A DNA stretch of 59,603 nt, filler included, from Moniliella sp. 'wahieum' (lineage: Eukaryota), in NCBI GenBank assembly GCA_003971905.1. It is 2 parts of 2 records of this genome, joined end to end, with 100 filler letters (N's around TTAATTAATTAA, not from the genome) between each part and the next. Parts side by side here need not be neighbours in the genome. Positions count along the whole stretch, not along the records: positions 1 to 31,591 come from RSEE01000192.1; 1 more part is not named here. One strand, written 5' to 3'. The notes under the pieces were generated by a model. That model had not been told where the DNA came from and did no database searches. It saw only the letters and a program-made list of their open reading frames with translations. Made by a program: the position numbers and the translations under genes. Shown here piece after piece: positions 4,437-44,417 of the stretch (its first letter is position 1; every line of letters starts with the position of its first letter).

Positions 4437-6065
4437 GGAGGGGAAAGAAGAGGAGGTGCGAGGAGAGAGGGGAAGACGCGGTGGGATCGGATGGTGGAGG
4501 GGGAAAAGGGTCTGGCATTTTTGTTATAGGTCCCCGGTCCGACAAGGATGAACGCAAGGAACTGACCAGCACCTCGTTTTCCTCTCCCAAGCCACTCCAG
4601 GAGGTGAACAATCCACGGGTCACAACCCCGCTCTCTTGAGATTGGGGCGAGACAGGCCCCGTATCTGTGGAGCAGGAACGGAACCAGTTCCCAAAAAGCG
4701 GGTACCCTCTTTTGACCCTTTTGACCCTTCGGGTAACAGTACAGATGACGTCAGTGTATAGTGGAAGGGTGGTAGTATACGTGAAAAGCCCCGCAAACGA
4801 GTCCCTGAACCTTGTGCTGATCAAGGTTTTTGGCTGACTGCTAGGTCGGGACAGTAACCAACGGGGGAAGATACCTTAACGGTCGAGGACAGAGGGTCAT
4901 GCGTCAGGGCGTGCCGGATACTCGATAGTGGGCGTGTCTCTGAAACGGGCGGATCAAACGGAGGAGGGTTGCACACACAGGTTTAGATCTGTTTTGACTG
5001 AGAAGATAAGCACGAAAACTAATGCTGTCAGGTACGCGCACCAGAACAAGAGAGGTTGAGCGAAGTGCTTTTTTTTGAGTACATACGAGCCTCTTTTGGT
5101 GCATATTGCCGGTGCTCTCATATTAGGTGTACGAGGCCTGAAAGGCTTCGAGTATCATATATCTTGCATCATGCATCAACGTTCAACAGTACTCAGTACG
5201 TCTTCAGTACCCTCAGTACACAGTCTGAGTATTACTCCAGTGTACTCAGTACCAGTATCTATAACTAGATTCCACCTCGATATAGCCATAGTCCTAGTCG
5301 TCGGCCTAGTCAGATAAGTCAGATCACGATCACTCTATCACTAGTCACTAGCTAGTCACTAAAGTCACTATAGTCACTAACAACCCGGTCCGACCCACTG
5401 ATCCACGGTCCACTCTGCTCGTATGTCCGGTTTAAAACACACAGCCCTCGCACCTCGCCTGTGAGGGCCTGGGCGCCTTGGGGGGAAATAGTGAAAGCGG
5501 GAGGCATGGGGGCAGTGTGACATTTGAGGTCATGTTTGCCCGTCACGCGTCACTAGTCACTGGATCTGTGGTAACATGCAACAGTGGTCCAGTGCATACA
5601 AGAGGGGGTCTCACCCAGTTGATTTGTTCGGGGATATTGTCTTACATATTACGCCCACAGGAGTCAGTCACATATGTATGCACGTCGAGGCAGATACAGC
5701 TGCAAACGTCGACGCCGACATAAATATCTTGATGCAGACACACCACACCACTACGCCCAAGCCCATCCATGTAAAACAAGCGAATGCAGGTATGTGCCCC
5801 AAGAAATGTGAGATGGAGGAAGGAGAGGCAGGTGGACTGGTTACACAATCTACCGAGAGGGACGATTTGAAGTGTATTTGCCTCTCACTGCCAGCTGCCA
5901 GAAAGGAAGGGAGCACAGCTGTGAGGTATGAGGTGTGAGAAGTCGGTATTGGATCTCTCAAATCTGATAGGAACCGCACCATGCGGCCTATATATTGCGG
6001 TCCTAGTGATGGGCGTAACATGTCAGAAACCCATCGCCTGGGCGCCGGTAGTTTATGTGTGTGGG

Positions 6066-6251
6066 TGTTATAAGGTTGGCTGATCTCTTCGCTCCCATTT
6101 CCAATTTCTTCGTCTCGGGCGTCTCGCTCTTTCCCTGTTTCCTCCACTTCGCACCGTGTCCTCTGCTCTTTCTTCTTCCCCACGAATGATTGCTACACCC
6201 CCTGGCCTAGTCCCAATTCTCGTCCCCCGCGTTAGCCACCCGACTGTGACA
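6066..6251 (+). mobile_element. Solo-LTR-like dispersed repeat, copy A
   Basis: TGTTATAAGGTTGGCTGATCTC...CCCGACTGTGACA is homologous along its length to the reverse complement of 7998-8177. No target site duplication (TSD) seen. Confidence 0.75.
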
Positions 6252-7587
6252 ATGTTGGGAGCACAGCATAAGGTACCCTCGCCGCAACAACCAAAATTCT
6301 CGTAGGATATGGTTCGTGGCCCTCTCTGCTACAGCTCTCGCACTAATGCACTCACTTCTGTGTTGGAGCTTGCAGCACATACTAGGTATGGCACACCTTC
6401 GACGTGTGTGCCAGCCACATCCACAAAAGTAACGCACTCCAAAACGCAGGGTCACATATGTGTCACACCGGTCACCGGCAACCGTCCCTCAAAACGGTCA
6501 AGATTTGTTTTGTTCATCACCTTCATTGCGTTCATCCGTCTCCCATGGACGATGTTAGGTGGCCGGTGGAGACTCTCCAAAATGGGTGGATATGGGGGTA
6601 AAATGTGCATGATGTCGACGAATGTCGTCGTCTTCATCGTCACCATGTGCGCCATATCTCGATGTTAAACGTTAAAAACACACGTTAAGCCTTAAAGTTA
6701 AGCCCAGAAGCGGTACACGCAATTTTGCGTGCTATTACTGCTGCTGTGGTTTCACTATCTATAGCGTTACTATAATCGGTACCCCCCGTGGTTCTAGATT
6801 ACCACGGTTAGCCTCTCGACCATGTCATATATCTCCGTCATCTCTCTTCGATCATCCGCCTCGACGACCACACGCACTTGCCCGGCGCCAAAAAGACCTT
6901 TGATTTCAGAGAGCCCTTCAGGGCCGAGCTCAGCTGGAGCTATATACGACATTGACTGATATGGAGGGAGACCCAGGACGTCTAGATTACAGCGTTTACA
7001 CTGGTCGCCTTTTCTGACTGAAAGAGCCAGCGTCTGTGCATGAAAAGAACTCTCAGATCATCGATAATCGATAAAGGGCCTTATAGCGTTGGTCGGTGAT
7101 GTATGATGCATGATGCATGATGATCGATGATCGATGACACGATGGGGCTTGACGCGTGACGGGTGACGCGTGACAGTGTTGTGACACACAGAAGCCAAAC
7201 GCGTGTGACATGTACATGTGACATGTGACAGCTGTGATCATGTGACAGGTACGGGTTACCGGTACCACTTAGCACCTAGCGCTTACGCGCTTACGCGCGC
7301 CTACCGGTTACCGGTTATATAACCTCGCTTAATGTGGAATTCATGTTCATGTCACCGTCACATGTGACATGTGACCTTCGGTCCTTTCCCTGTCTGGACT
7401 CTGGTTGTCACACTCAGGCCACAGCGCCACATGGGCACACGTGTCACATGCATCTTGCCCCTATCGTGCAACGCAGGCTTCAAGCTTCAAAAGCTTCCGC
7501 GGTTCCAGAGCTCCAGCTTCAAGCTTCTTGGCAACCGACGGCCGTCAACACCTATATAGCTACCCTCGTTCGGGTACAAAAGGGTGG

Positions 7588-7862
7588 TGTAATATGGTTT
7601 TTGGCTGATCTTTCACGCCCATTTCCAACTTCTTCGTCTCGAACGTATCGCTCTCTTTATCTCTGTTCTTCCGCTGTGCATCCATATCATTGACAAAGCA
7701 TAAGGCTGCCAGAACAGAGAAACGCTATTACGCCTAAATCGACCGTTATATCCTCTGCCCTTGTTGTTGTTTATTAGTTGTCCCCACAAACGATTGCTAC
7801 ATTCCTTGATCTAGTCTCGACTCAGGTCTCTTCCTTCGCATTTATTAGCCCCGACTGTGACA
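7588..7862 (+). mobile_element. Solo-LTR-like dispersed repeat, copy B (diverged, with internal insertion)
   Basis: TGTAATATGGTTTTTGGCTGATC...CCATTTCCAACTTCTTCGTCTCG...ACGATTGCTAC...AGCCCCGACTGTGACA, with extra sequence at about 7685-7750. Confidence 0.7.
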
Positions 7863-7997
7863 ACTGTGGTGTGGGTTCTTCGTAATTTCAACGATTTTGT
7901 GATGTTGGGGCGCTCCGTGCATCTCCGGACACCGAACCCCCCATTTCGTAGACCTTTCATGGAAGCACACGCCAGCCCCGCGACACTTGTGAGTAAC

Positions 7998-8177
7998 TGT
8001 CACAGTCGGGGCTAAGGCGAGGGAGACCAGGATCGGACTAGGTCAAGGGGTGTAGCAATCGTTCGTGGGGAAGAAGCAAGAACAGAGGACATGGTGCGAA
8101 GTGGAAGGAACAGGGAAGGAGCGAGACGATCGAGACGAAGAAATTGGAATGGGAGCGAGATCAGCCAAACTATGACA
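7998..8177 (-). mobile_element. Intact 180-bp solo LTR, copy C, with 5-bp target site duplication
   Basis: TGTCA...TGACA inverted termini flanked by the perfect direct repeat GTAAC (7993-7997 and 8178-8182). Strand is given relative to copies A, B and D. Confidence 0.88.
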
Positions 8178-10224
8178 GTAACAGTCAGCACGAACAACTT
8201 GTCGCGGCTATTTTCCGCGAAGCGTCACAGGAAATGACCGGACTTATATCCGCGGCGTACAGTCTTGGTAGAACCCCACATCTACTGCACCCAGAAGATC
8301 GCAGTACGGTCATAACAGGCCGCCCTTTACCTCTTACTAAGATTCCCTTCCTTCTGTTAATGCCTGTTTTGATGTTACGGTATATAAGCAGCCCTGTCTG
8401 AGGCTTGCTGGCAGTGATCCTCACCGCCCAACCCATGTAGTCTTCCCCCCGACTTCTCTCTCCACTCTTCACCCTTACTCTTACAAATTTACGACTTGCG
8501 TCGACCATTCTCGCAAGCTGCGGTTACTATCTGTAGCGCTTGCTCTTCTTTAGGACTCTGTCTGTTCCCGCCTACTACAGCGTACCGGGTGTGGTAACGC
8601 CGCGAGGAACAAAGTAACTTCGGAGGTCCCGGACCCCTTCAATTGGTCTTAAGACCTACGTACGCGGCTCCTACCTCGGAGGGTTTGAGCCGCGGTCTTT
8701 GGACGCAGGCAGCCACCCAAACTAGAGGGTCTCTCCCTTGCCTCTACACCCGCTCGACGGTTCAACCAGGATCTGAAGCAGGACCTAACGTGGTACGTAT
8801 AACTCATCGAATGTGGAAATGTACGACGGAAAAGGCTCCTATATGGATCTGATCCCTCGTCCCACTGTTGATTTTTGTCCATATATAGTGGAGATTGAGT
8901 AGCGGTTATAGGGGGTGAGAAGCTAGCCCTTTTACTCCTGGACGGCACCCTCAGCGTGCCTTCCCTTGCAGAGACACGCTCTCCTCCCCCGCTGTGGTGC
9001 ATTTGGCTGTATAGTATAGCGATGGAGAACCTTGCCCTTTCCCACGCTACCGGGCTTATTGCCTCACATTTCCTTTGCTGGCAGTTCTAGAAAGCCAGGG
9101 CCACTCTCTCGGCATCGGGATAAATCATCGAGTCGCGCTCGATGTACTCCTCCAACCAGGCATACTGTACGGATACAACCAACTCCAGAGTATCGTGGGT
9201 GAATGGGCTGGCAAAGCGTTTTTGTATGAAGTGGTAGATAGTTGTCCGGGATGTGTTGGATAAAAACGCCTTATTTCTTAAACACGCGTGATGCGGAGGG
9301 CGAGGACATGCAGTGCGGGGTACTGTGGCCACTGCAGCTTCTATGCTCAGATTCAGACGTACTATACGCGTAACGCCGCGGACTCTTGCTTTGCCCTGTG
9401 CAGCAAAAATGAGCTGTTAATGACGACGAGGGAGACGGAAGGCGGTACTGGGCACACGCGGGGCGGGTGCTAACCAAATAGCTTAACCAAGTACTACTAC
9501 CGTGCGTTATGCGGCGGTCAGGCCACTGGGGGAGGTGCAGTGTGTGTGTGGGTTTTATAGTTGTTGCCGCTAATCTGCCAGCTGTGCACTCTGCAAATAT
9601 AGCCCCAACTCAGCACCTGCTGCGCAACGCCAGGGACGAAACGCGGGGTCTGGCATGGTCTGGCATCAGACCATCAGGCCTCAGGGGAAAGGAGGGCTTG
9701 TTTGGTCTGGACAGAGGGGGGCCACTAAGAACGGCGCAGTGGTCCGTGCTGGAGCGGGGATTACGCGGCACATCAGCGATAATATGATGGGGATGGATGA
9801 TGGGTTATGGCTTAGCATATGCTGGGGTAAATGAGTGCCCCACACTCTGACCGAAGTACCTGACGAGGCCTGGGCCTGACAAAATTGAGGACGGAATAGA
9901 TTTACTGATGGGTCCGGGAGGGGACGTGCCTGTGGCGGGCGGGATGGGATGGCAGGGAAATAGTTGTCGAGCGATACGCATCAGCTCTGTGCGGGTGGTA
10001 GCGTCGGCTACTACCGCATATATTACGCTGCCGAATATGACGGAGGACGCTTTCTGAGGGTATTATTGTGGTTTTGTGTGCCCTCCCTATATGCCCTCAC
10101 CTCCGCACGATCGGAGCAGAATACGGTTCATATGTTTATCCCCCCTGCTCCCACCTGCCTCCTAACCCCGCCCCGTTTATCGTTTAAGCCGATCCTCATA
10201 TTCGTATAAAACCCTCTCCCCCAA

Positions 10225-13070: not shown

Positions 13071-15219
13071 ATGGGCTCTCTCTCCGCCAGCCCGTTTCCC
13101 ACGTCCCCCACACCTTCTGGTCCCCAGTACGTGGCGCCTTCCGTCGCACCAGCCAAGTATACGGCCCAGTCTGCGCCGACCCAGATCTCTCCCACCCTCT
13201 CCTCGGTGCCCTTGGCGGAGCGCAGCGATGCCGAGCGCAATGTGCTCATCACCTCCGCCCTCTCCTATGTCAACAATGTGCCCCATCTCGGCAACATCAT
13301 TGGATCGACGTTGAGTGCGGATGTGTATGCTCGTTACAGCCGCTCGCGCAACCGCAACACGTTGTACATTTGTGGCACGGACGAGTACGGTACGGCGACC
13401 GAAACCAAGCATTGGAAGATGGTGTGACGCCACAGGAGCTGGTGGACAAGTACCACGCCCTTCATAAGATTGCCTACGACTGGTTTGATATTGGGTTTGA
13501 CTATTTTGGTCGCACCACGACCGAGTGGCAAACGAAAATTGCCCAAGACATCTTTCTCAAGCTCCATGCCAATGGCTTTGTCGAGGAGCGCACCATCACC
13601 CAACTGTACTGCGACAAGGACCAGCGCTTCCTGGCGACCGTTACGTGGAGGGAATTTGTCCCAAGTGTGGTTACGAAGATGCTCGTGGCGATCAGTGCGA
13701 CAAGTGTGGCTCCTTGTACGATGCGATGGAGCTGAAGCATCCGCGGTGCAAGACGTGCAACTCGACCCCGCTCCCAAAGAGACCAAACATATCTTTCTCC
13801 GCATCGACTTGCTCAACCAGCGACCGAGACGTGGGCGCGCCAAGCGGCCGTCGAAGGAGCTGGAGCAGCAACTCTGTCCACATTACCGAGAGCTGGTTTA
13901 AGGAAGGCCTGCGACCGTTTAGCTGACGCGTGATCTCAAGTGGGGGGTGAAGGTGCCATTGCCCGGGTACGAGGACAAGGTATTTTACGTGTGGTACGAT
14001 GCACCGATTGGCTATCCATCCATCACGGCCAACTATGCGCCGAGTGTATGGGAGGCGTGGTGGAAGAGCCCGGAGCAAGTGTCGCTGTACCAGTTTATGG
14101 GCAAGGACAATGTTCGCTTCCATACTGTCATCTTCCCCTCGACGTTGATTGGCACCAAGGACAAGTGGACCAAACTGCAACAGATCAGCACAACCGAGTA
14201 CCTCCAGTACGAAGGAGGCAAGTTCAGCAAGAGCCGCAACGTTGGAGTATTTGGTGATAAGGCGGCCGAGACAGGGGTACCGGCCAGCGTATGGCGGTAC
14301 TATCTCTTGGCCAACCGGCCTGAAACGGCGGATTCCAGTTCTCCTGGGCCGAGTTTATTGCGCGCAACAACAATGAACTCTTGGCCAATCTGGGCAACTT
14401 TGTCAACCGCGTTCTGACTTTGTCGCCAAGATACCAAGGGATCTTGCCTCCCGTTCCAGCCGAGCTGACCGATGCCAAAGCCGAAGGACACGCGCTCTAT
14501 GCGGCGCTGGTCAAGGACGTCAATGTGCTGCTGGGCCAGTATGCGGACCATATGGAGGCGGCCCGGTTGCGCGCTGGGCTTCAAACCGCAATGGCCATCT
14601 CGGCCCGGGGCAACCTGTTTTTAACCGAGTCCAAGCTGACCAAGGCGCTGTTTGTCGAGCATCCCACCACGTGCAACGCCGTGGTTCATGCGACAGTCAG
14701 CCTCATCTACCTTCTCAGTGCCGTCGTTGCGCCCTTTATGCCGTCGACTGCCAATGACATTTGATTCAGCTCAACGCACCACCTCGGGCTCTACCTCTTC
14801 CCCCAGAGGCCGGACAGAAGGGTGGCATCGGCCATTGGGCCCCGCCAGAGCTACTGGCCGATCACACCATCGGCAAGCCTAAGCACCTTTTCAAGCCCAT
14901 CGATCCCAAAATGGAAGAGGTGTGGCGGACCCAGTTTGGCGGAGCCAAGCCAAGGAGAGACGGCCAAACCGGCTCTGAGTAAATCACAAGCAGCCAAGCT
15001 TGCGAAAAAGGCCAAAAAGGAAGCAGAGGCGCGGCGGCGGCCAAGATCCCCAACACTCCCGAAGCCAAGGCGTTGCGGGCCAAGATTGAAGCACAGGGCG
15101 TGGCCGTGCGCGAGGCTAAGGCAGCAGCCAAAGCGGATGACTCCAAGCAGGCGGCTGTCGATGCCAGCGTCCAAGAGTTGCTGCAGCTCAAGGAGCAGCT
15201 GGCTAAGCTCTCGGTTTGA
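13071..15219 (+). CDS. MES1: Cytosolic methionyl-tRNA synthetase (frameshifted in assembly)
   Basis: [24 protein letters not shown] (HLGN = HIGH motif), [15 protein letters not shown], zinc knuckles [42 protein letters not shown], anticodon domain [12 protein letters not shown]. Stop TGA at 15217-15219. Confidence 0.97.
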
Positions 15220-15759: not shown

Positions 15760-17865
15760 GGCGGATGGCGGCGGCTGGGCGGCCTGAATGCGTATCGCCG
15801 CGCCACCCATGACGCAACGTGGCAGCGGAATCTGCCCTGCCGCTTCCGCCTCGCGACCCAGAATGGGTGATCCAGTTTTTTTCGTGGTGGTGAATGTTTC
15901 ATCTCACGTTCTCCCGTTCTCCCGCCCGTCAACTACCTACGGTTTGCCCCTGGGGCTAGAGAGTGTCTGTCCTACGCGTGCCGGGCAATTGACGATGGGC
16001 CGTGGCTACCACTGGGCTGTGCGCCCCTGGCGCAGGTAGCGCCGATACGTTTTGCACTATGCATGGACAGGTCCAAAACATATACGACCGTTCAAAACGT
16101 TAACAAACGTCAGACGCTGCGCAATAAGCCGAGCACTTGTCATTCCGTGATCTGCCCAAATAATGCAGCGCACACGTGGCTTTGGCCTGCTGCTGTGGCT
16201 TGTCCAGGTTCAAGCTCTAGAGAGTTCAAGCTGACGTTCAGGCCTTCAGGTCGACGTGACCCGCGTGTGACCGACCAGGAGGCCTGCTCAGGCGGAGGCC
16301 GCCCCTAATGCGCCAAAACTGAGGACCCCTCAGTGCCTCCGCCTCATCAGCCTCTTAGGTCTCATCTCAGGGTCTCGGGCTTCTGGCCGCAGTATGGCGG
16401 CTTCAGCCCCAGGAGGCCTCAGGCCTCAGGGACTCTCAGATCTCAGATCTCAGGACGTAGGTAGTTGGAGGACGTTTCGTGTCTTGCTCCAACAAATGAC
16501 GTGCTCGTTTCTCCCCCAAAGTTGACTGACATGTGACACGTTGACCCCGCCCCCCAGTCCTGTGCTGCACACAAGACTGTACATTCGGTTGGTGTACCGA
16601 TCACTCAGGCACTCTCGGTGGGCATTTCGTACCTATGGGCAAACCTGCATCCACACTATATGGCTAAATTGATTATTGCTGTGGCTTTACACGAGTTTTA
16701 ACCCTGTCTCCACAAAAGCTTCGTAAAAGTATAGTAGGATGCGACTCGGTAAGAAATATATGGCCCCTTGAAAGTCTGAGGCACCGCGCTCCACACTACT
16801 TGGGATGAATTCGCCGCGCAAGATTCGTCCAGATGGCATGGCTGGCATCATGGCAGTAGTGGGTGTGGGTGTGGCATATACCGCAGGGGGGCTATGGCGT
16901 TGGGTGCAGTAAGTATAGGATGGCGGGGCTTGAAGCTTGAAGTTCAAGCGTCTGCCAGCAGCGCCGTCTCGGTGCCTTTGATTGATGCGCGGGGACATGG
17001 ACAGTAGATCCATCGGCGCAGACACGCTCTAAGGCCGAAGGGGGGAAAGGCGGCTTGGTGACTCTACTGTGTCGAGCGAAAAAGAGAAAACAAAAATTGA
17101 TCATCGATGATTAATGATTGGGTGTCACCGGTCACCGTCACCATCTCACCACACTGGCCACACTCCTCCTCTCCCACAAGGCGCTGAACCTCCGGCAGCA
17201 GGCACGGCGCCTGTGCCCCCGCATCCAGCCTCGTATCGTTTGTCCCGTGGTGCGAGCTATTTTGCCGAAGCGGCGGGACCAGGAACCACCAGCCAGCAGC
17301 GCCCAGGCCTGCCAGGTGTCAGCACATGCCGTGAGGCACTCGTGAGGCCTGAGGCCCTGTTAGATCGTAGCGCTTACAGCCGGCATCTGCCTGCTGTGGT
17401 TTGGGTAAGATTGCGTGCGCGCTGCGTGAGACCGCCTTTTCATCCGTGCACTGTCCAGTCGCCTCCCTACTCCCACAGCCACACGCCAAAACTATAGTGC
17501 CTTCTGCCTCTTGCCTCTCTCTGTCTCTGAGCAGGAGTGTGCGTGGCGGGCCTCCCAAAATTCTCTCTGACGCGGGTTTATTTATAAGAGGCAATATCCC
17601 CCCGACTCCACACCTCCTTTTGTTCTTTCCCGCTTCAAACACCCGCACCCTACTCTCGTCCCTCTACCGCTTTGCCCGACCCAGCAAGCAGCCAATTCGC
17701 ACAAGATCTTCACTTGTGTGCCGTGTGCTTTCCTACCGTGGCCCGACGCCCACTCGAACCTTGAAGCTTCTCCCTAGCCCCCTTCGCACCAAGCTTCAAC
17801 AAGAACCTTCGCCCATTTACCGTCCATCACTCCATCTCGTGCACATTTCCGCCCACACTTTTCCC

Positions 17866-24964: not shown

Positions 24965-26078
24965 TTAAGGAGCGTGGAGGAACTCAAGGAACTTGGGGTT
25001 GAGCGCCACTTGGCCGGTTGGCAGCGGGCTTGTAGGTGCCAGCAGCCTTGGCGGCGCGATGTCAGCCTCGATCTTGCGCTGCACCTTGGCGTACGGGTTA
25101 AGACGGTCCATGACGAACTTTTGCGCTAGCGGGTTCTTCTTCTGGGTGAAGGGGCGCTTGGTCGCCTTGGGGCCAGCCGGACGAAGCAGCCTGGATCTCC
25201 TCCGAAGCAGCAGACGCGACACGTCCGTGTTGGTGATCTTGGCGCGGGGAAGGACGAAGCCCTTCTTCTGCGCCGAGGCAGCATCGTAGGTGCCAAAGAT
25301 CGAGTCGAGCTGCTTGAAGGCAGCCTCGGTCCAGATCACAAAGCGGCCAAGGTGACCACCGGGCGCGAGCTGGAGGAGGTTAAGGCGGTGAACCGACACG
25401 AGCTCCACACCGGGCAGGTTGCGGAAAGCGCGGTAGATGCCCTTGTCCTCGTTGTACACAACGAGGGGGCCGCGGCGCTGCACGTGACGACGGTTGCGCA
25501 GCTTGCCCTGGCCAGCACGGATCTTGCGCGAGTTGGACACCTTGAGCACATCGTCGTAGGCGTTGAGCGCCTTGAGGAGGGCAACCGCCTCCTTGGTCTT
25601 CGAGTAGGACTCGACCTCGGTGGGGACAACGAGGGGACCTCGGCAACCTGCTCAACGCGGTGGCCGCGGGCGAGAACGAGGGACGGCACGGCGGTCGCAG
25701 CCAGAGCCGAAGCAGTCGCAACACGCTTCTGGTTCTGGTTCGTCTTCACCCACCAGCGGCGCCACACCTTGGTGGGAGCAAACATGTGACCGCCACGGGC
25801 CATGTTACCGAACGCTGGCCAGCACGGTGGGTGCCCGAGCCGCCCACACGAGGGATACGGGCCAGAGCACGGCCGGTGCCCCACGACTCGGCCGAGGTCT
25901 GGTGGCCAGCCTTGGTGGAAACGGCGTAGGGTTGGCGCTTGTTCTTGGCCACCTGGGTGTAAGTAATCTGCACCACGTCGGAGCGGATCGGAGCGGTGAG
26001 AACGGCGGGCAGCGGCAGGCTTGCGCCGCTGGCACTGCCGTCAGCAGCGCGGACACTGACAGTCGCACGCGAGGCCAT
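24965..26078 (-). CDS. RPL4: 60S ribosomal protein L4 (uL4), apparently intronless, frameshifted in assembly
   Basis: [115 protein letters not shown]. Confidence 0.98.
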
Positions 26079-27357
26079 GATGTTGGAGAAGGTGCTGCTT
26101 GGTGGCGAGGCCGTCACCGACGCTGCCAGCTGCCCCCCCCGGCCACCAGCGGCCGTTCGGCGGGGCAGCGGCACCAACACAGGCGCAGTGCCTACACTGG
26201 AAAGCAACTGCGGCAGTGCTGGCGCTGCGGAAATCATTGCGCCGGGGGAACAACCCTAGTGAATATTGATGTCCCTCCGGGACCATGCTGGCTCGGTGAT
26301 TACGCGCACGGTGATGTGCCATTGGCGCTCAATCACATGTCACAACCTCCACATGGTTGGCTTCCCCGCATGGGCACCTCAGCCTGCTTCGCTAACTTTC
26401 GTTCCATAGGTGGCGTATGATTTGTAGCCTGGCACCTGTGGACGAGGTGGAGGGAAACCAGCTCGCTGCTCCCATTTCCCAGTGAATCCTCCAGTGGATG
26501 ATGCAGCCAGCCGTCCCTGCTCCCAACGTCTCCTTCTGGCTCTTTTACCGTGGCTGTAACGGACGGATGCGGGGTAGATAGTGTTGTGCCTGATGTAGCT
26601 GGAGGTTCCGAAAAGCTCAAGACCCAACAAGCGTCGCATGCACTGGCTCATCTATTTCGCCTGTCAGGACCTCATTCTTATCTTTTTGGTGAGCACTGCT
26701 GCGTCAACGACGGATCTGTGGACCGGACGCGGAGGAGCTGTGGCTAGCAAAGGCGATGTTGGTTTAAAGCCCGTGATGCATCATTTCCGTCGGCAGCACT
26801 GCGTGGACGCACCTGCGAGAAAGAGACGGTTGCGGGTGGATTGTCGCCTGGTGGAGAGGGCATGGCCTGGACATGGGGCAGGCATATATAGCGTGGTTTA
26901 GCTGAAGGGTGGCGCTGCTCTGGTGCAGCATGTGGAGCGTCCGGCAGGCACCGGGCGGGGGTAGCATGAGGCGAGTGTGGGGGAGCCGCGCAGACACTGC
27001 CGCGTGGCGCCGCTCTGCTGCGGCTGGAGCGCAGACGTGGCATGGCTGGCGTGCGGCCTGGCTGCGCCCGGTTGCCACCGGCCACGGCGCCACCCGGAGC
27101 GGAAGCGCCGGCTGCAGGCTGCTGTGACATGTGACGCGTGACGCAGCACTGCAGCCCTCCGCCCTTACACTGCCCCCGAGCGGCCTGGTGATCGGCAGGC
27201 AGGGTGCACTAGCTAGCTACCGCTGCCCATCTGCATCCAACGCAGCCCACAGGCCCTCCATCGCCCATCTCCTTCGTCTTCGTTTGCGTCTTCATCGTCG
27301 TCTTCGTCGCGGTCTTCGCCTCCGCATCCACCGTCGCCCTCGAGCGCTTCGTCTCTC

Positions 27358-30300
27358 ATGCTGTCGCCGTGGTGCGTGTGACACGTGCCCTGCTCCGGCA
27401 GGCCACCCGCACGCCCATCGAGAGCATCGTCGTCGTTGCCATCGTCGCAACACTCGCCTACTTCTCCCTCCTCTTCGCCTTGTCGCGCTCCCATTGGATC
27501 GACGCCGTGGCTGCCTCCGCCGGCCTGCCCGCCCCCTCCTTCGCGCCACCCACTGTGTGGACACACTCGGCCTCTGGCTGGTCACGTGCTGGCGCCAGCG
27601 CCTCTGCGGACGCTGCGGTGCGTCCTGTCTTCTGGGTCGACACGATCGGCACCCTGCCCCAGCAGGCTCCAGCACCCAGCCTTCTTCACTCGCCCAGTCG
27701 TTCGCTGCCCAACATCCTTCCGTGCCTTCCCTGTCTACGCCCTATGTCCTGCCGGGTAGCCCCCCTGTGGTGGCTTGGACCCCTCGTTTGCCTCGGCCGA
27801 CTCTGCTCAAGAGACGGAGCTTCTGCAGCAGCTCGCTACCCCGTCCAACGTATCACCCCTTCGACACCTGGCGCATTGTCCCTGCAATGTCCCCTACTAC
27901 ATGGACACGCGCAGGGCGCGCCCTGCAGCAGCTTCGCTCATCGCCGCCGTAACAGTCCAGGCTGACTCGATTCGCTTGGGCTTACGCTTCTCGCGCTCTC
28001 TTCGCTCGCTTTGGCCACCTGATCCGAGCCGCCGATTCTGCCGATATCTTTCTCATGCTTTGTGTCTACATCTTTATGCACGCCACCTTTGTCAATCTTT
28101 TCTATCGATGCGCCGCTTTGGCTTCCACTTCTGGCTTGGTACGTTGCCCTCTTCTCTGTCTCCGCCTCGTCGGCGAGCTGACTAACGTTCGGTATTGTTC
28201 AGGTGCATCGGTTTTGATTTCGTGCACTTGTGCGTTTATTTTGCTCTCGTCTCGGCCCACTACCTTGGTGTGCACATCGACCCAGTCCCACTGAGCGAGC
28301 TCTCCCATTTTTGGTCGTGACTGTCGGGTTTGACAAACACTATAAATTGACCAAGGCTGTCTTCACTCACCCCGCTTTGCTCCATCGTCCCACCTGCACG
28401 AGGTCCCAACGTTCTTAGATGTTCTGAAGCCACCTTCGCGTTCGGTAGGAGCTAGCGAGGGAAAGCCGGCCTCAATGGGAACTCCTCCGCCGATACACCC
28501 AAGTCGAATGAGGATGCCTTTGTTCGGGCCCTGACTGCCCGCTTGCGCGAAAATCCCGATCTCGATGGGAGCTTCCCCGTCCACTGGCTGCCCGTGACGT
28601 GTTGGTGGGTGCATATGACAGTGTTGGCCAAGAAATCGTCGTGACTATGCGATCGAGTTGGCCTTGCTGCTTGCGGGCTCATGCATTGCTCCTAGTGGCC
28701 TGCATGATTTTGCCAGCTCGCGGCACTGATCCTTTTTCGATGCCATTCTTCTCCACACGTTTTACACTGGCATCCTGACCGTTATTGTGAGGTACTGCGG
28801 ATCCGGATCTTGCGTAAGCGCCGCCACGCTTCCCTCCCAGCCGCATCGGCCGTTAACAAGGAAGCCGCGCCACCAGCGGCGGCGTAGCAAGCGCTACGAC
28901 GACCGGCTCGGTTACCCCTACAATCAGGGTGCGATAGCGCAGCAAGCAGTCGTGTATCTTCCATCTCGATCACTCCTTCAACTATGTCTGCCCCCCTTTG
29001 GCTGGGATGTCAGCCCAGCTGCGTCACCGGCAGCATTCTCGGTCCCGTCGGGTCCGTGGGCTCTGGCACCGCCTGGTTGGCTCCAACTCTAAAAATAACC
29101 CAGTGGGCCGGCTCAAAATCTTGTTGATTGCTTCCTTCATCACGCTACACAGCCTCAACCTTGGTACCATGACAACACAGGCTTCTCGCACTCGCTACTT
29201 GCGTGCTGCCACGTCCGAAGTTGCCTCTACCTTACGTCCCCGAGCGCTTCCGTGAACGATCCGTACCAGCTACTTCGTCAGCGACACAGTTCAACTTGTC
29301 CTTAACCCCTTCCTCGCCGGCACTTGCGCCAGCGCTCGAGCGCTTTGCTCGTTCCCATCCCACTGGCGCCCGCTTGCAGATCCATGACCCGGTTTTCCTT
29401 TCGGTGATCGATTACTCCCTCACCAACCAGGTGTCGGCGAGAAAGCTGAACTTGCCAAGACATTGCCGAGGCATATGAGCAGCAATTCCCCTCCTGACAG
29501 TGTCGATCGCCTCATCGTCCTCGGCAACTCATTCAGTTCATCCTTCCTTCTCGACTAACAGCTCGCGCGGATCGACAGGCTTGCTTTCGCGCCACCAGTC
29601 GCTAGAGGTCTTGGGCAGCCTGATGACGGAATGGACCTCAATTGTTGGTGACCCTCTTATTTCCAAGTGGCTTCGATCGCGATGGCAGTGAGCATCTTTC
29701 TAACGCTACCTGCTCCGAGGCATTGCTCAAGGCAACGCAGCTATTGCCCGAGGTAACGCTATGGGTGCCGCTGCTTTTGCCGCTGCTCGATGCTGGGCGC
29801 TCATTTGGATGAAGCCGAGTCCCGCATCGCCAAATCGTCCCGTTCCAACTCATCCAATGCCAATCCTTCCCGCGCCTCCGCTCCCACGGTGACATTTATG
29901 CCGCCTCCCCCTGCGCTGATTGTGCCAGAGGAGAAGATCCTACACCTCCCACGGCGGGCGTGGACGCTTCGCAGATCCGTTCGTTCGAGGAAGTATTGGT
30001 GTACGACAATGGCGCCGGTGTGCTCTCTTGCGGACGAGGAAGTAGTGTTACTTGCCAGCGGGGAAAGATTCCTGCTTACGCGTTGGAGAAGGTACTTCAA
30101 GACCCGAGCGTGCTGTTCGTGTCCGCCGCGCTTGTTTCGCGTGCCAGCTTGACCAAAACGCTGGAGACGGGCAAGTTGCCATTTAAGAACTATAACTATG
30201 CGCAAGTCATGGGTGCATGCTGTGAAATGTTGTGGGCTACCTTCCTTTGCCGCTCGGCATTGCGGGTCCTCTTCACCATTGACGGCCAACTTACGCCAAT

Positions 30301-31368
30301 CCCGATGGCCACGACGGAAGGTACGCTGGTTGCATCCACTTCGCGTGGGTGCAAGGCGCTGAATGCGGGGGGGGCGTGACAACCGTTTGACGCAAGACGC
30401 CATGACACGCGGCCCCGCCGTCGATTTCCCCACTGCGGCCGAAGCGGCGCAGGCTAAGAGATGGATCGATTCCACCACTGGTGCGGCGACGATCAAGGCT
30501 GCCTTTGACTCGACTTCCCGCTTTGCCCGACTGGCCAGTTTGCGCACCGCGCTAGCGGGTCGAACCCTGTTTATTCGCTTTGCACCTCGACGGGGGATGC
30601 GATGGGCATGAACATGATTTCCAAGGGGTTGAGCGTGCGCTGACATTGATGGCCCCGAGCACTTCCCCTCCATGAAGGTTCTGGCCTATCGGGTAACTAC
30701 TGTACGACAAGAAGCCCGCTGCGATCAATTGGATTGAAGGTCGGGGCAAATCGGTGGTGGCCGAAGCGGTGGTACCCAACAAAGTGGTGAGCTCGGTGCT
30801 CAAGACCTCGGTGCCGCTTTGGTGGATTTGAACCTGAAGAAGAACTTGATTGGCTCGGCCATGGCCGGCTCCATTGGCGGCTTCAATGCCCATGCCGCCA
30901 ACATTCTTACTGCCATCTACCTTGCCACGGGGCAAGATCCTGCGCAGAACGTCGAGTCGAGCAACTGCATGACCTTGATGGAGGCCACGCCCGAGGGGAC
31001 TTGCGCATCTCGGTTTCCATGCCCTCCATCGAAGTGGGAACGGTGGGCGGGGGGACGGTGCTGGACCCACAGAGGTCGATGCTCGAGCTGCTGGGCATTG
31101 CTGGGCCGCACCCTTCCACGCCAGGCGCCAACGCTCAACGGCTCGCCGCCATCATTGCCTCCGCGGTGATGGCAGGGAACTATCGCTCATGTCCGCCCTC
31201 GCGGCCGGACATCTGATCAAGGCCCACATGGCTCACAATCGCTCCGCCCCTGCTTCCGCTGCCCACCCGGGCCATGTAAGTCCCAACCCAGGTCGAATTG
31301 CGGCGACGATGACACCCTTGGTCGCGCCCAGTATTCGTATGACCAAGGCGAATGGATCGGGCCGGTAA
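27358..31368 (+). CDS. HMG1: HMG-CoA reductase (class I, sterol-sensing membrane domain plus catalytic domain), frameshifted
   Basis: N-terminal [33 protein letters not shown], catalytic [73 protein letters not shown]. Intron at about 28139-28203. Confidence 0.97.
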
Positions 31369-31591: not shown

Positions 31592-31691
31592 NNNNNNNNN
31601 NNNNNNNNNNNNNNNNNNNNNNNNNNNNNNNNNNNTTAATTAATTAANNNNNNNNNNNNNNNNNNNNNNNNNNNNNNNNNNNNNNNNNNNN
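31592..31691. other. Artificial contig-joining spacer
   Basis: 44 N + TTAATTAATTAA (stops in all six frames) + 44 N, exactly 100 bp. Confidence 0.97.
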
Positions 31692-31713
31692 CCTAACCCT
31701 AACCCTAACCTAA
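31692..31713. repeat. Telomeric repeat (CCCTAA)n at the start of the second contig
   Basis: CCTAA-CCCTAA-CCCTAA-CCTAA immediately after the spacer, with the C-rich strand on + as expected for a left chromosome end. Only about 3.5 units are retained. Confidence 0.7.
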
Positions 31714-34358
31714 CTCGTAAGATTCGAACTCCTCGTCTTGTCCCACGCGTAGCGAAGGAGGAAATGCTTCATGGCCTGCATGGAAATCAGCACGCCCGTC
31801 GGGGTCAAAGCGCAATGTTCCCATTGGATCTGGGCATCGTTGTGCATGCAGGAAAAAGGATAGACGCTCGGCTCAATCCACCGCTGGATCACATGGGGCT
31901 CCCCATTGGGAAGGACAGAAAATGGGCGAAAGGGCAAGGTGGTGCATGTGATTTCCTGGGGCTGCCGCGCATGGGTCCAATCCAGCACATTGACCAGCAA
32001 TATCCCCATTTCGTTATTTCCCTTGCGCACATTTTTAAGCGGAGTAAATGGACCTACGCCCCGGCGCGGCGCCAAAGTGGGGCCGTTGGGTGCAGGCGGG
32101 GAATGAGGGATGTCGTAGGCATGGAGATGCAACATGCTTGGAATGACGGCGCGACCATTGCATCCACGAGCGATGCGAGTACCACAAGTCGCTTGGGATG
32201 GAGGCGCCCAGCCGGTGGCGTGTGTGGCAATCGAGGATGGCAAGCCAGGCCGGGTGGCGGTGGACACGGCCAGTAAAGGCATGCTTGTAGCCCTTCAGCA
32301 CACCCAAGTATAGGCCGAAAGGAAAATTCAGTTTCACATGCTCTTTCATAAACTCGGCATCGTCGGCGTCTTCGTCTGCCAACAGGGCTGGACTGGAAAA
32401 ACAAAACACGAGCGTTTCGGATTCAGGGTGGACTTCAAATCCAAACACATCCCTAACCGCAAAAGCGTCCTTCACCTGCTCAACGCCGGGGAACGCGCGA
32501 TTCTTGCCCTACCAAGAACAACAAAGAGAGAAACGAAAAAGAGGAGGGTTAGTCACTTGTCGTCCTGCTTCAGCAACCAGTCCGGAACGCGAAATACATA
32601 CAGGATTTGCCCTTTTCGGCAGCGGTGGCTGGATCAAATCCACTGTGGGCTGCCAATGAGCATTCGGCTGCGCTGGGAATCGAGATGATACTTGGACGGA
32701 TCAATGAGGAATTCGTTCACCGAGAACAGGATCTTACCTGACTCGGCGTCGTGCGCAACCAAGGTGTTGAATGATCGCTCCCACTTAATTGTAGGATCTG
32801 GTGTTTTGCCGTTCCAATCTAAGTGGGAAAAGAGCATTCGGGGCGAAAGACCAAAAGGCTCAAGGGAGTCAACCGCCTCGCCTGTCGTTAGATTAAACAT
32901 GGAAATGATTGTTTGCCGGGAGGTACATTGGGGTCATCAACGGCCGGGCCACTTGGAAGGGGGGGTAGGCGAAGGAATGTACGTAACCAAGACAGATCGT
33001 GTAGCCACGCTAAAAAGAGAGACAAAAGTGGGGCCACCATAATCATCCCCATCACCAGGCATTCGAGCACAAGACGTACCAAGCAACCAAGCGATCATTC
33101 CCTACCAGGGCGAATCGGATTCCCAACAACGTTAAATCCGTGTCGCGTATCCCCCCGGGAATGTCCAAGACGGTGGTCTTAAGCGTCGAAGAGGGAAAGA
33201 CGGCGTCATCAAAAGACGTGGTGTCGGTCGCAGCATCTGATGCAGCAGGTTCAATTGCAGTCGAAACAGCGAAATCATGCGTAACAGCAGCAACTGCTTC
33301 TTCTCCTTCAGAGTGATCGTCTTTGGTGGTATCGCAGCTCATTTTTGCGATCGTCCTTGACCTATTGTGCTGAACTAGCAAGTCCCAGCCACCATGGTGC
33401 ACAATAACAGATACGTGCGTATTGTTCCCAGGATCATCTGTCGCAAAAGGTCAGAAAGGGGTCCAGTAAAGGCGGGCAGGGATAAAAGTAACAATGTGAA
33501 GAAGAGCGCCCAAACCAGCAACATACCCCGAAGCCAAACGCTCAGAAACGGTCCCTCATAGACGACATCGCCCCATAAAGCCACCAACCCTTCGGTGCGT
33601 CATAGGTATACAACTTGGTCTCGTGCTCCTTGTCCCAATACACCATCTGATTGTCTTCCAACTCTATCAGATCACTGCAAAAGTTCAACCCGCCATACTT
33701 GCTCTGCGGTTGGACATGCGTGTTGGTCCGTTCCTCCGCCGGACCCCCATCTCGTTCGAGCACAAGAGGGTTGACGAGCGGGTGCAGAACAAAGGGGTTG
33801 GTAGGATTGGTGGTGTCCATCTCGGTATGGGGCGGGGGGGCATCGCCTGTGGCTAGTGCCTCCGTGTCGGGGGCCCCATCATTGCAGGAGGGCGGAGAGG
33901 GATGTGCGGCGGGAGAAGGAGAGGGGCGAGGATGAGGAAGCGGTGTGCCGGACAAGCTCCATCCAAAGGGAGCGTGGAGGAGTTCGTTGGCAATGACCAA
34001 CGCTTGCCATGTGCGCGGCACAATGTCCAAGCCGCAGGCATGAGTAGCGTCCTCGAGCGAGAACGGGGGCGACGGGGACGAGGCGGGCAGACGTAGCAGC
34101 CGGTAGGCGATGCGGCGCCAGAGCGTTTGGTTTTCGTAGAGAGATGCACGTAGTCCTATGTGTGGATTAGACGCGAAAGGGTCAGCAGCCAGTGGGGCAG
34201 GACAGCTGTTGGCAAGAAGAGACAAAAGGGAGGCAGACGTTCACACGACGACACGTACGCTTGCATGTCGCCGCCAGGCGGACCACATCACACGGCTCCA
34301 GCAGCTCCGAGGCGGCCACTTGCCAGAAGACCTCGGTGGGCAGAAACTCCAACTTCAT
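31710..34358 (-). CDS. F-box domain protein, transcribed toward the telomere
   Basis: MKLEFLPTEVFWQVAASELLEPCDVVRLAATCK|RLRASLYENQTLWRRI is an F-box consensus split by a GTACGT...CACATAG intron (about 34156-34258). A second intron lies at about 32498-32601. The remainder is frameshifted and unassigned. Confidence 0.75.
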
Positions 34359-37129
34359 CGAATCCGTAAGTGTTTCACACGTGTTGCAAGGCGGAGGGGT
34401 ATCAGGACACGAAGGAAGGCGAAGCGAGGACCCGGGGCCCGAGGATAGATATGTGCATTAGATTCCCCCTTGGGGGATGGGGCGGCGGACTTGGGAGGGG
34501 CTTGGCGCAGCCTGAGCGCTTGGGCCTGAGACAGCAGAGGATGCGGAGCTTTGCACAGCAAGCATAGCCAACTGATTTGACACATTTGACAGCCGGAGGA
34601 GATCCGAGATCTGAGATCTGAGATACTATGGAGGACACAGGAGGATTGGGCGCTGTGTAAGTAGCATAGCTTTTTGCCATTTTCTCCACACCATTTCACG
34701 CCCATTGATAACGTACTGAGTACGAGTGTCATATAGTCATGCATCATGCTGCTCGTACCGAGTACAGCGTCCTGAGTGTGAATATAGGAGGCGTGGAGCG
34801 TGAAGCGTGAAGTATCCTTGGCGCTTGAAGGTCTTGAAGCCTGGGGACTACGTACAGAGGAAATGGTGCAATGCCCGTGAGACATGCTGCACTAGGCCTG
34901 AGGCCTGCCGCGCCCTGACGATGCGGGGACCGGTGACATCACAGCTCAGATGCTCCGTTCGTGCATCCTGGGCACGGAGCCAGTGACGGGGACACAAGCA
35001 TGTTCCTAGGCAGCCTGCGGCGATGCATCACATACATGTCACACACCACACACTCTGCGCCGCGTCGCATGCCCCGCTGTCCCATTCGCACATGTCGCAC
35101 AGCCGGCGGTGGGCAGAAGGGCAGACAGGCACTGCGAGGATGCGATGCGGGGTATGCGAGGGTACATGGCACACGTGTACTCAACGTACTCAGGTGTAGA
35201 AGACCAGAGAGCAGGCAGTTGATGGTGTATTGGCTACAGAAGAGAGGCTAGGAGACTATTTGCTAGGTAATATGCAGGCTTTACTACGTATATCGGGGGC
35301 GTACCAGCCCAGACTTCGTGCCTCGTGGATTGTGGTAGTGTTGCGCAGTGGTTGCTCAGCCTGAGGGCCTGTTGCTCACATCGAAGTCGATCGGACGGGC
35401 GGACGCCACACGATCGAGAGAGCACACATGTGCCACAGTGGCCCAAATGATCGATGACCGGATCAGTACCGAACACGTTGAACTCATAAAGTCAGTACAA
35501 GCACGCATCTGGGCGCTGGAGCGACAGCTGTGGCCACTTGGATTGTGTTGCCAGTGACTCTCGACCGCACCATGGGCAGGGGGATTGTTGGGGGTTGGCC
35601 ACGTCAATGTGCTGACACAGCCCTGTCGCCTCAGTTGTGGCTGCCTGTGCTCGGATCCTGGCTCGGATCCGACACGCAGAAAAGAAGTCTTCTTTCTTCT
35701 TTCTTGCCTCTGCCGTTCTGTCGCGAGGATGAATGGGTGCGGCAGGAACAACCTGCCGACCGACGAATGCCCACCCTCTTGCCCCGCAGAGAACGCTCGC
35801 CAGTTCTGGCCTTGCCTGCCTTGCCAGTGGACTCGCCTCGCATGCCGAGTGTACGCCTATATATAACAGACCCGAGAGGCCCTGGTACGCTTCATCGCCT
35901 CAATGATCATCCCGCGCGGTCGGGGGAGGGGGAGGAACGGGGGGGGCTGGTTCTGCGCCCAGAAATGGGGCACGACAGGGCACGACCCCCCAAGCAGTGG
36001 TTGAGCCCATTGTTGGGCGTGCGCATCTACCGCCGCCCTCAGGTTCCGCATTCCAACCCGTCCCGAACCCACATGTTATTCTACCTGCCTACATACATAC
36101 CAACCTACGTATCTCTCTCGCCCAACGCCGGCACGGATGCCGAAGGCTTTCCGTGCACCAAGATACAGATCGAGCGGATGGCATGGGATGAGAAGCGCCC
36201 ATAGATAGATTTGGAAGGAAGATACTAGCGCTGTTGGGCTGCAACGATCCTTTTCGTACCGGCCCTCACGCTCAAAGTTCAACAAAACTAAGAAAGCAGA
36301 AAGCAGAAAGAAAGTCGGAAGGTCATACCTGAGAGCCCATGAGCCAACTCCAACTGCACTGCCTGAAACGCCAGAGGGAGAAAAGATGCTGATGACTCCA
36401 CGGTGAAAACAAAAGTGGAATGCAACGATACACTGCAAGGACACACTGCACAGCCCTTCCTGCCCCGGGTCGTCGGGATGATACGAGCGCGGTACTATCG
36501 ATGCAACAACGAAGATGGTCACCGTGCTGATTCGGAACGGGACGATCCTTTCTGAAGTATATTCTCCTTGAAGACGGTTAATCGTTGATCGAATCGATTG
36601 CATGCAGACCATCTACCACACTGTCTCCTTCGTAGATATCGTGTACTATCCTCCGGTGTGGACCCAAACGGCGTGCACCAGAGGGTCCTGACCTATGCTA
36701 TTACCGGCGCCCCTGGTTTCCTACCTACGCTAGTACCAGTACGTCGCATACACCGAAGAAGCCAGAGCAAAAGTACCTAATACCCAGCAGTGTACTTGCT
36801 GCGTGAATGAGCTGGCAGTGGGACCATCGGTGGAATCCGTGCGTGCATGCGTTGACAGTCGAACCATCCGCGGAGCCCGTATGCCTTGTGCGGACCTGGT
36901 TCCCGTGGGAACGGGAAAGGCATACTATACAGGAAGGGAAGGGCACTTCCCTTCTATGGTCTTTTGTAGACATACGGGCAGCGCTGGGATCTGAGAAGCT
37001 GGGAGAAGGGTTGTCAGCGCCCCCCTCCCGCCCCTGTGTCCGACGCGACGGTCGAGGGGAGGGAGGAGGTCCACGTTTCTCCGTGACACTTTGGACTCCT
37101 TCCTGCGTAGGGAAAAGAGGGATGGAAAG

Positions 37130-37188
37130 GGAGAGGGAGAGGGAGAGGGAGAGGGAGAGGGAGAGGGGAGAGGGAGAGGGAGAGGAGG
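37130..37188. repeat. (GAGAGG)n polypurine microsatellite
   Basis: Directly visible tandem hexamer. Confidence 0.95.
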
Positions 37189-39751: not shown

Positions 39752-40507
39752 GGTGGTGGTGAGGAGGAACGGGGGGGGATGGACCAGGGCTGGTAGGTCC
39801 GAAGTTGGTGGTTTATTATACCGCTTGGTTTCTTCCGATTTCGTGCTGGTTCATTTTTTTTACCCAGCCAAGCCAGCTTCGGAGATTGCGATGTGCCAGC
39901 CCCGAAACGGATCCTAAGTCCGAGGATTACGATTGTGCGCGAGTTGATCATTTCAAACGCAGGTATCTGGGGCCATCGGGGGGTTGCTCCCTTCGTCGAA
40001 ACCGTCCAGAAGAGCAGGACTTTGGCGACCAACACTGGCCCTTGCGTCTGTGGCCCTTGCACTACTTGAGTCGCATACGCGAAGCACGCCTGTCCCACCG
40101 GCTGCAGGATCGTCGATCAATATTCAATCTCAATTGCCCAAGCTGCCAGTTCGCAAGAAGGAAAGGGTGCGCGAAACAATAAACCCGACCGAATTAACAC
40201 TACTAAACACGGCTTCAATGAGAAGCATCTCTCGCATCATCCTCCGTCAGACCTCAGGCGCCAGGACTATATACGCGCAACCCCTACCTACGCGAGCGGG
40301 ATGGGACGCCGCACGTTGAGCATATGAAGATGAATATTGAACGGCAAGAACAGCATAGTAGTGATTCCATGATCCAAGCAAACTGAGCAACCCCGAGCAA
40401 CAAAAACACGCAAAAGGCGGGAGCACATGAAGAGACAAAACGTTACCACGACTGGATCCCAAATTCAGCAGTGAACCTGAACCCAGTCAGACCGTACGGC
40501 GGAGCCA

Positions 40508-40566
40508 GCCAAGCCAAGGCCAAGCCAAGCCAAGCCAAGTCGAGCCGAGCCAAGTCGAGCCGAGCC
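40508..40566. repeat. (CCAAG)/(CCGAG) pentamer tandem repeat in the amine oxidase 3' region
   Basis: GCCAAGCCAAGGCCAAGCCAAGCCAAGCCAAGTCGAGCCGAGCCAAGTCGAGCCGAGCC is directly visible. Confidence 0.85.
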
Positions 40567-44155: not shown

Positions 44156-44385
44156 CCTCCGATGCTGAATACCAGCACTATGATGGATAGGCGGGACGGT
44201 ACATGATGGGTGCCACGACCGCACATGCAGTGACTGACGTTAAGCATTGAGCTGGCGGAGCTCGCGGTACTAATCGGTTAACGGGGACCGTACGAGACGC
44301 AGTGGGTCTGGTTAGCGACACAACCACGACGCTGGTGATCGCCTGATCGTTTTGCTCAGCAGCCCAGCACTGCGATTTGGTCCCA

Positions 44386-44417
44386 ATCCAATCCAATCCA
44401 ATCCAATCCAATCCAAT
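44386..44417. repeat. (ATCCA)n microsatellite
   Basis: Directly visible. Confidence 0.95.

Follow-up and report, generated by a model that had tools for sequence, protein, structure and literature searches.

The window analysed here is a 59.6-kb stretch of DNA from Moniliella sp. 'wahieum', consisting of two contigs of one assembly from one strain. Its gene content is that of eukaryotic housekeeping, including methionyl-tRNA synthetase, ribosomal protein L4 (RPL4), HMG-CoA reductase and SRP68, and an ARID protein, Rxt3 and a copper amine oxidase were also identified, all by Pfam search. Between positions 7050 and 7530, in a gene-poor stretch with repeat relics, lies a dense block of short heptameric arrays, in which hexamer palindromes of the form A....T are chained by single bases. 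A preliminary description of this block had listed several of the arrays, and all of those were recovered: ATGCAT-G-ATGCAT at 7106 and ATCGAT-G-ATCGAT at 7123, ACGCGT-G-ACGGGT-G-ACGCGT at 7152–7171, ACATGT-G-ACATGT at 7214 and 7360, ACCGGT-T-ACCGGT at 7303, and GCTTCAAGCTTCAA at 7477–7490. The feature is real and strongly non-random, and it is best read as a collection of iterated transposon excision scars written under a precise and unusually uniform rule.

Enrichment of palindromic tetramers between TNA triplets

Matches to the regular expression A-pal4-T/N/A-pal4-T, where pal4 is a 4-bp palindrome, numbered 19, against 0.415 expected from 200 dinucleotide-preserving shuffles within 500-bp blocks; the spacer base was G in 12 matches, C in 5, and A and T in one each, and 15 matches had two identical cores, 4 two different ones (0.385 expected). 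Direct counts gave 39 instances of TGA-N4-TGA (14.4 expected), in 26 of which N4 was palindromic (0.83 expected), and palindromic N4 was also found between two TCA (17 against 0.88), two TTA (2 against 0.12) and two TAA triplets (3 against 0.10). Ten control triplets enclosed 0–2 palindromic N4 each, which is the level of chance; the enrichment is specific to TNA. Palindromes at spacings of 2, 6 and 8 showed no clear excess (0–1 match per triplet, against about 3.2, 0.2–0.3 and 0.04 expected, respectively).

The palindromes themselves gave the same picture when they were grouped by context. A....T hexamer palindromes numbered 215 against 153 expected, and the entire excess came from palindromes with two flanking TNA triplets (59 against 7.4), those with TNA on one side being near chance (34 against 24, and 19 against 25). 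Exact 7-bp tandem runs spanning 14 bp or more number 39, and 25 of them contain a 6-bp palindrome, compared with about 11% expected for a random cyclic 7-mer (7/64, an arithmetic estimate); this palindrome is A....T in 23 of the 25, and the spacer is C or G in 20. Thirteen palindromic tetramers were found between T.A triplets, with 12 among the 36 canonical arrays, which agrees with the roughly 12 cores reported earlier, except that the AGTACT core is without TNA context by these criteria.

Iterative removal of 7-nt insertions yielded 41 such +7 events in the window, whereas 30 shuffles gave 0.40 on average and never more than 2. Both contigs carry them, as had been stated, the first with 31 and the second with 10. 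Ten of the 41 fall within 7040–7540, where they make up 14% of the bases, compared with about 0.5% of the window overall, and 11 of the 48 matches with the same N in both triplets lie in the bin 7001–7500, the next bin holding 4; the block is thus the densest in the window, as originally described. Likely coding DNA is avoided: long stop-free frames cover all but 29% of the window, and 32 of 48 events lie in that 29%.

Such a distribution could be imagined for selected binding sites, that is, arrays maintained for a factor recognising directly repeated TGA/TCA at a 7-bp spacing, since the arrays are mostly non-coding and some lie upstream of RPL4 and of an amino-acid transporter gene. The preliminary description had offered a factor reading TGA direct repeats among its explanations, and we found no support for it: only three bases are constant, the filler is dictated by the two neighbouring bases, which a binding code does not require, and the block itself is in a gene-poor stretch with repeat relics. 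Selection of binding sites is therefore a highly improbable origin of the arrays.

The elementary unit

The arrays can be reduced to one elementary change, pq-TNA-wx → pq-TNA-wx-x'w'-TNA-wx, which adds seven bases, and to its mirror form, pq-TNA-q'p'-pq-TNA-wx. The corresponding canonical 12-mer is TNAwx + x'w' + TNAwx, in which five bases are repeated on either side of two bases that read x'w', the reverse complement of wx. There are 51 canonical 12-mers with a direct TNAwx copy, and 17 isolated ones among them have flanks that do not continue the period. Among 61 pairs of TSAwx (S, G or C) separated by a 2-nt gap, the gap was the reverse complement of wx in 46 and that of the TS end alone in none, while the remaining 15 were of other kinds, some being one mutation off. 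This fit to the flank rule, together with the isolated 12-mers, indicates that the palindrome is made by the event rather than pre-existing. The mirror outcomes were equally common, the wx x'w' filler being found 26 times and the q'p' pq filler 25 times (0.14 and 0.13 expected, respectively).

The triplets on the two sides of a palindrome share the middle base (GG 26 and CC 17, against CG 4 and GC 1), indicating that TNA is copied directly, not inverted. A nick-and-snap-back process, which had been put forward earlier, is still conceivable, but it does not explain such directly copied TNA with the same middle base. The middle base of the arrays was S in 31 and W (A or T) in 5, the available sites being about 2.2 to 1. 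Of the four chains in which the cores differ, three consist of two canonical events flanking a single TNA (5167/5176, 5541/5550 and 27123/27132).

Period-7 runs of 12–13 nt, which is less than two units, were found in 16 arrays, indicating that the arrays are not simple tandem duplications. Slippage of a single motif had been dismissed in the preliminary description, and rightly so in view of these 16 runs and the diverse cores; microsatellite slippage in general was rejected on the same runs, on the proportion of palindromic units (25/39 against about 11%) and on the specific TNA anchor. Replication errors alone could still be conceived as heptamer slippage combined with template switching that perfects quasi-palindromes, and arrays of up to 3.7 units are consistent with this, as are the tandem runs of periods 6, 8, 9 and 12, which are also in excess by a rough uniform expectation. 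However, slippage copies whole units and produces neither runs of 12–13 nt nor two inverted nucleotides; the TNA anchor would be unexplained, ten other triplets being at chance, as would the 12 cores in 36 arrays, and isolated A....T palindromes show no excess. We thus consider replication errors a very unlikely source of the pattern.

Variant joints and the size of the duplication

Besides the canonical unit, whole nnTNAnn copies were observed at 5343, 5363, 7204, 7281, 34799, 43719 and 49847. Some of them are separated by symmetric palindromic fillers, namely AGTCACT/AT/AGTCACT (1+1), AGTCACT/AGCT/AGTCACT (2+2) and TGTGACA/TGTACA/TGTGACA (3+3, 7204–7223), for each of which 0.000 were expected. 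At 7281 and 43719, non-palindromic 7-mers are joined with a single base that complements the first base (GCTTACG/C and CATCAGC/G, respectively), and at 34799 and 49847 two non-palindromic 7-mers are duplicated cleanly. These whole-7-mer joints fit a duplication of 7 bp around a central TNA, to which both flanks contribute palindromic bases, and they are not predicted by a 5-bp duplication with one-sided additions. At 5330–5380, four different joints occur between copies of one 7-mer, a variety expected of repeated breakage with end joining and not of slippage.

The size of the duplication bears on whether a Transib/RAG-like element was responsible, which would duplicate the 5-bp TNAwx and have its two hairpins opened differently, one at the tip and one 2 nt away from it, giving five forward and two inverted bases. 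The minimal 12-mer can indeed be read as exactly 5+2+5, and the even-centred palindromes fit hairpins formed without offset. On the other hand, under this scheme the target must be asymmetric and only one side may be processed (46 gaps of one polarity and 0 of the other alone), pure 5-bp TSAwx duplications number only 4, TGA at spacing 2 is depleted (3 against 13.7), and the whole 7-mers with fillers AT, AGCT and TGTACA, or with the joints GCTTACG/C and CATCAGC/G, are not predicted. Whole 7-mer copies with two-sided fillers favour 7 bp, and a 5-bp element of this type appears improbable.

A proposed hairpin model for the arrays

Judging from the sequence patterns, the arrays are probably iterated excision footprints of a cut-and-paste DNA element or element family. 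The element would insert at nnTNAnn, where G or C is preferred as the middle base, through a staggered 7-bp cut with T-N-A at its centre, and would thereby duplicate the 7-mer. On excision, both flanks would seal into fully paired hairpins without offset, and a Pso2/Artemis-type nuclease would open both, 2 nt to the 3' side of the tip; each flank would then end in a self-complementary 3' overhang of 4 nt (wx x'w' or q'p' pq), with the recessed 5' end exactly at TNA. In end joining, the overhang of one flank would be ligated to the recessed 5' end of its partner and the second overhang discarded, with a net gain of seven bases. The resulting scar would contain two TNA sites, one of them within a perfectly palindromic 7-mer, where the overhangs would be identical and cohesive, so that later rounds would add seven bases in phase and the arrays would grow; rounds on the other side of the same TNA would give chains with different cores, and slippage may add or remove units afterwards. 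Cohesive identical overhangs at palindromic 7-mers would account for arrays such as those at 7097–7122, 7119–7137 and 7150–7174.

Hairpin-type transposon excision scars had been one of the readings in the preliminary description, and it is the one favoured by the data, given that the filler is templated by the flank (46/61) and that symmetric fillers stand between whole 7-mers. Two features of such scars are present: the direct target duplication is kept at the empty site (51 canonical 12-mers, and whole 7-mers at seven sites), and the joint carries P nucleotides with the flank end as their template (46/61, and the symmetric 1+1, 2+2 and 3+3 fillers). The 2-nt step also fits published enzymology for fungal Pso2, which opens hairpins 2 nt from the tip.

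Several observations weigh against excision by a mobile element. The evidence comes from a single assembly of one strain, and this assembly contains single-base deletions. No pair of terminal inverted repeats with a TNA-bearing flanking duplication was found in the window, only chance-like pairs; the motif CTCACTG had 6 matches in the window against 9.9 expected, and its one inverted pair (21499/21915) is inside a coding frame. In addition, no transposase, integrase or reverse-transcriptase domain was detected by Pfam among the 190 stop-free frames of at least 130 codons in the window, which gave host genes only. The symmetric two-sided fillers are all at sites that were already palindromic, where other parsings are possible. 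The outcome is also far more uniform than known hairpin footprints, with about 41–51 canonical joints against about 7 variant joints; according to passages of PMC5873905, Ac/Ds in Candida albicans left 28 different footprints in 128 revertants, the two commonest being found 35 and 18 times. Finally, several arrays are exact runs of 14–17 nt, which are commoner than a series of 12, 19 and 26 predicts. Such lengths would arise in that series only where an array has since mutated or where the site was a palindrome beforehand, and point mutation in longer arrays explains some of these (7097–7122 and 7150–7174, with one mismatch each) and not all.

The same chemistry might operate without a mobile element, if nnTNAnn sites in open chromatin were repeatedly broken by a host or domesticated nuclease, through hairpins or staggered cuts, and the repair of these breaks wrote the +7 scar. 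This would be in keeping with the lack of an element or transposase in the 59.6 kb, with the extremely uniform product and with the clustering of events in gene-flanking and gene-poor DNA. However, two hairpinned flanks that each carry the full 7-mer need a prior target duplication or an excised segment, and a break at one site does not give both. We regard a nuclease acting alone as unlikely.

Comparison with known systems

The scars resemble the P-nucleotide joints of flank-hairpin transposases (RAG/Transib coding joints and hAT Ac/Ds footprints) in the retained target duplication, in the short flank-templated palindromic additions and in the variable length of the joints at a repeatedly used site, here 5330–5380. 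The target of hAT elements is the 8-bp nTnnnnAn and that of Transib elements is 5 bp, whereas the present scars repeat every 7 bp around a central TNA. Their palindromes have even centres and their outcome varies little, and they restore the target and grow into genome-wide arrays. In the hAT signature, as described in passages of PMC5873905, complementary bases take the place of those that adjoined the element. Membership of hAT was rejected, because the period is 7 and not 8 and because joints with both adjacent bases complemented were absent, those with one complemented numbering 2 against 0.29 expected.

Duplications of 7 bp in Basidiomycota are known from hAT7 in rusts and from Kyakuja in mushrooms, the latter with CA..TG ends and without terminal inverted repeats (from the relevant passages of PMC12730594). 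Both share the duplication size with the present case and occur in basidiomycete fungi, but they were described from rusts and mushrooms, not smuts, and the window contains no such element or transposase and lacks the hAT-type offset signature. PIF/Harbinger elements, with a 3-bp TWA duplication, are alike in that T-N-A is copied directly on both sides of the joint; they were rejected since plain TNA-TNA occurs at chance (15 against 14.5, and 13 against 13.8), since S exceeds W at the middle base (31 and 5 arrays, respectively, for a site ratio of about 2.2 to 1) and since two further bases are copied. Canonical Tc1/mariner elements leave one stereotyped footprint of fixed length, whose filler comes from the element's own ends and is constant. 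The dominance of one fixed-length footprint is shared, but in the present arrays the flank determines the filler, which varies between sites (12 cores).

No description of the rule of TNA plus a 4-bp palindrome was found in the literature searched. The statement in the preliminary description that no named feature of this kind was known may nevertheless be too strong, because '10-bp repeats' in Ustilago maydis, small repeats between genes that were proposed to be transposon footprints, are mentioned in passages of PMC4081816, where they are attributed to Laurie et al. 2012. TNA + 4-bp palindrome + TNA is also 10 bp long, and the two may be the same feature, although the citing passages give no rule, mechanism or link to heptamer arrays; the text supplements searched for PMC4081816 contain no mention of 10-bp repeats. 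The pattern has possibly been glimpsed already in the smut literature. Among Cryptococcus elements, T1 has no target motif (passages of PMC9942834), and CNIRT6, CNEST and KDZ1-3 make duplications of 3, 2 and 4–8 bp, respectively (passages of PMC12810828); none of them fits the pattern.

Array coordinates, genomic setting and assembly quality

The coordinates of the arrays and scars, in the block and elsewhere in the window, are collected in Table 1. Array rows cite exact period-7 runs, canonical 12-mers by start position, regular-expression matches, or rows of Tandem Repeats Finder (TRF).

Table 1. Heptamer arrays, excision-type scars and the RPL4 gene in the window
Feature	Position	Strand	Evidence
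Two scars on opposite sides of one TCA (ATGCAT-C-AACGTT), different cores	5165–5187		minus 5167 TGATG ca TGATG; plus 5176 TCAAC gt TCAAC; regex match 5171
AG-TCA-CT scarred repeatedly; AGTCACT copies joined directly or by AGCT (2+2), AA, AT (1+1)	5330–5380		5343 (2,2), 5354 (other), 5363 (1,1); TRF rows
Two scars, one TCA (ACGCGT-C-ACTAGT)	5541–5561		minus 5541, plus 5550; regex match 5545
TAA + TCGA array (ATCGAT-A-ATCGAT), W-type TNA	7058–7074		exact 15-nt period-7 run 7060–7074; T.A-pal4-T.A at 7058, 7065; canonical 12-mer 7063, minus
TGA + TGCA array, 3.7 units, one C>T mismatch (TGTA)	7097–7122		TRF period 7, 3.7 copies, 94%; 12-mers 7104, 7109, 7111
TGA + TCGA array, 2.7 units, abutting the TGA + TGCA array via TGA-TGA	7119–7137		exact 19-nt run; 12-mers 7119, 7121, 7126
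TGA + CGCG array, 3.6 units, middle filler CGGG (one mismatch)	7150–7174		TRF period 7, 3.6 copies, 88%; 12-mer 7150
Three TGTGACA copies, first two spaced by palindrome TGTACA (3+3), last two abutted	7204–7230		7204 class (3,3), expected 0.000; 7217 class (0,0)
+8 variant: non-palindromic GCTTACG repeated plus one C (complement of first base)	7279–7298		TRF period 8, reads GCGCTTAC x 2.5; 7281 class (0,1); site 7283
TTA + CCGG array (ACCGGT-T-ACCGGT)	7302–7317		exact 16-nt run; 12-mer 7306, minus
TGA + CATG array (ACATGT-G-ACATGT)	7358–7375		exact 16-nt run 7360–7375; matches 7358, 7365
TCA + AGCT array (GCTTCAAGCTTCAA)	7477–7490		exact 14-nt run; 12-mer 7478, minus
TCA + GGCC and TCA + GATC arrays, adjoining	16414–16453		exact runs 16414–16430, 16434–16453
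TGA + TCGA / TTAA chain, then TCA + CCGG with +6 variant (TCACC-G-TCACC)	17101–17137		regex match 17103; 12-mers 17108, 17125; 1-nt left-P 17132
RPL4 gene	24968–26255	minus	Pfam
Two scars, one TGA (ACATGT-G-ACGCGT), upstream of RPL4	27123–27144		minus 27123, plus 27132
TGA + GATC array, contig 2	34606–34624		exact 19-nt run
TCA + CTAG array (3 units) and TGA + CGCG array, contig 2	56135–56186		exact runs 56135–56155, 56170–56186; 4 events in 56100–56300

Some further repeats were noted beside these arrays. A perfect 16-bp palindrome, ACGTTTAATTAAACGT, lies at 56263–56278 and adjoins a TTA + ACGT scar array. The array of GGCACTA x 4.3 at 44823–44852 reads GCA + CTAG; it keeps the palindrome rule, but the T of TNA is replaced by G. 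Ordinary microsatellites outside the TNA rule are (ATCACC)13.5 at 50811–50891, (GGAGAG)10 at 37124–37185, (AGCCA)12.8 at 40503–40566 and (CCAAT)7 at 44383–44418.

Around the block, a repeat of about 170 bp is present in three copies, at 6040–6260 (plus), 7570–7720 (plus, partial) and 7990–8210 (minus). The outer two copies form a 115-nt inverted pair, 90% complementary (6099–6213 / 8035–8149), which encloses block 7050–7530. The repeat has no open reading frame and no family match, and it may be a relic of a long terminal repeat or of a miniature inverted-repeat transposable element; an alignment of its three copies revealed no copy-specific 7-nt insertions. A search of 4500–10000 against Rfam gave no match. 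An open frame of 52 codons at 6797–6952 on the minus strand, with its ATG at 6952 (MSYIAPAELGPEG...), ends about 100 bp from the block and may be a first exon, or nothing.

The two contigs are joined in the window by N runs at 31592–31635 and 31648–31691 around the TTAATTAATTAA linker (31636–31647), and contig 2 starts with CCCTAA-type telomere repeats at 31692–31714.

Intronless frameshifts in essential genes were seen at 13380–13680, 24968–26255, 29813–31213 and 40711–43333. In the methionyl-tRNA synthetase gene, a single G is lost from a GG run near 13405 and again near 13636 (within 13380–13680), and the genes for ribosomal protein L4 (24968–26255), HMG-CoA reductase and copper amine oxidase are each scattered across several frames without introns. 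With its essential genes frameshifted in this way, the assembly looks like an unpolished long-read assembly, and the arrays might be suspected of being assembly or basecalling artefacts. The visible errors are, however, 1-nt homopolymer deletions, which differ in kind from 7-nt insertions partly reverse-templated by the flank, and an artefact would neither spare coding DNA, as these insertions do, nor depend on a TNA anchor. An artefactual origin is accordingly among the least probable explanations.

Implications

A more speculative extension, which we think quite unlikely, is that the scars are not relics of a vanished transposon but are still being written by a resident nuclease, possibly a domesticated one, that forms hairpins and continues to cut nnTNAnn in open chromatin. 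Each repair would then recreate a better palindromic, cohesive-ended target, and heptamer repeats beside genes would extend themselves as a source of promoter variation.

If the arrays are excision scars as proposed, one stereotyped break-and-repair reaction would have written a measurable share of the non-coding DNA (14% of the block bases and about 0.5% of the window), and transposon excision would be a route by which short tandem repeats and palindromes are seeded beside genes. The scars would also provide a sequence-level read-out of in vivo hairpin opening in a fungus, 2 nt from the tip, and past transposon traffic would become countable per site in genomes that at present seem nearly devoid of DNA transposons.

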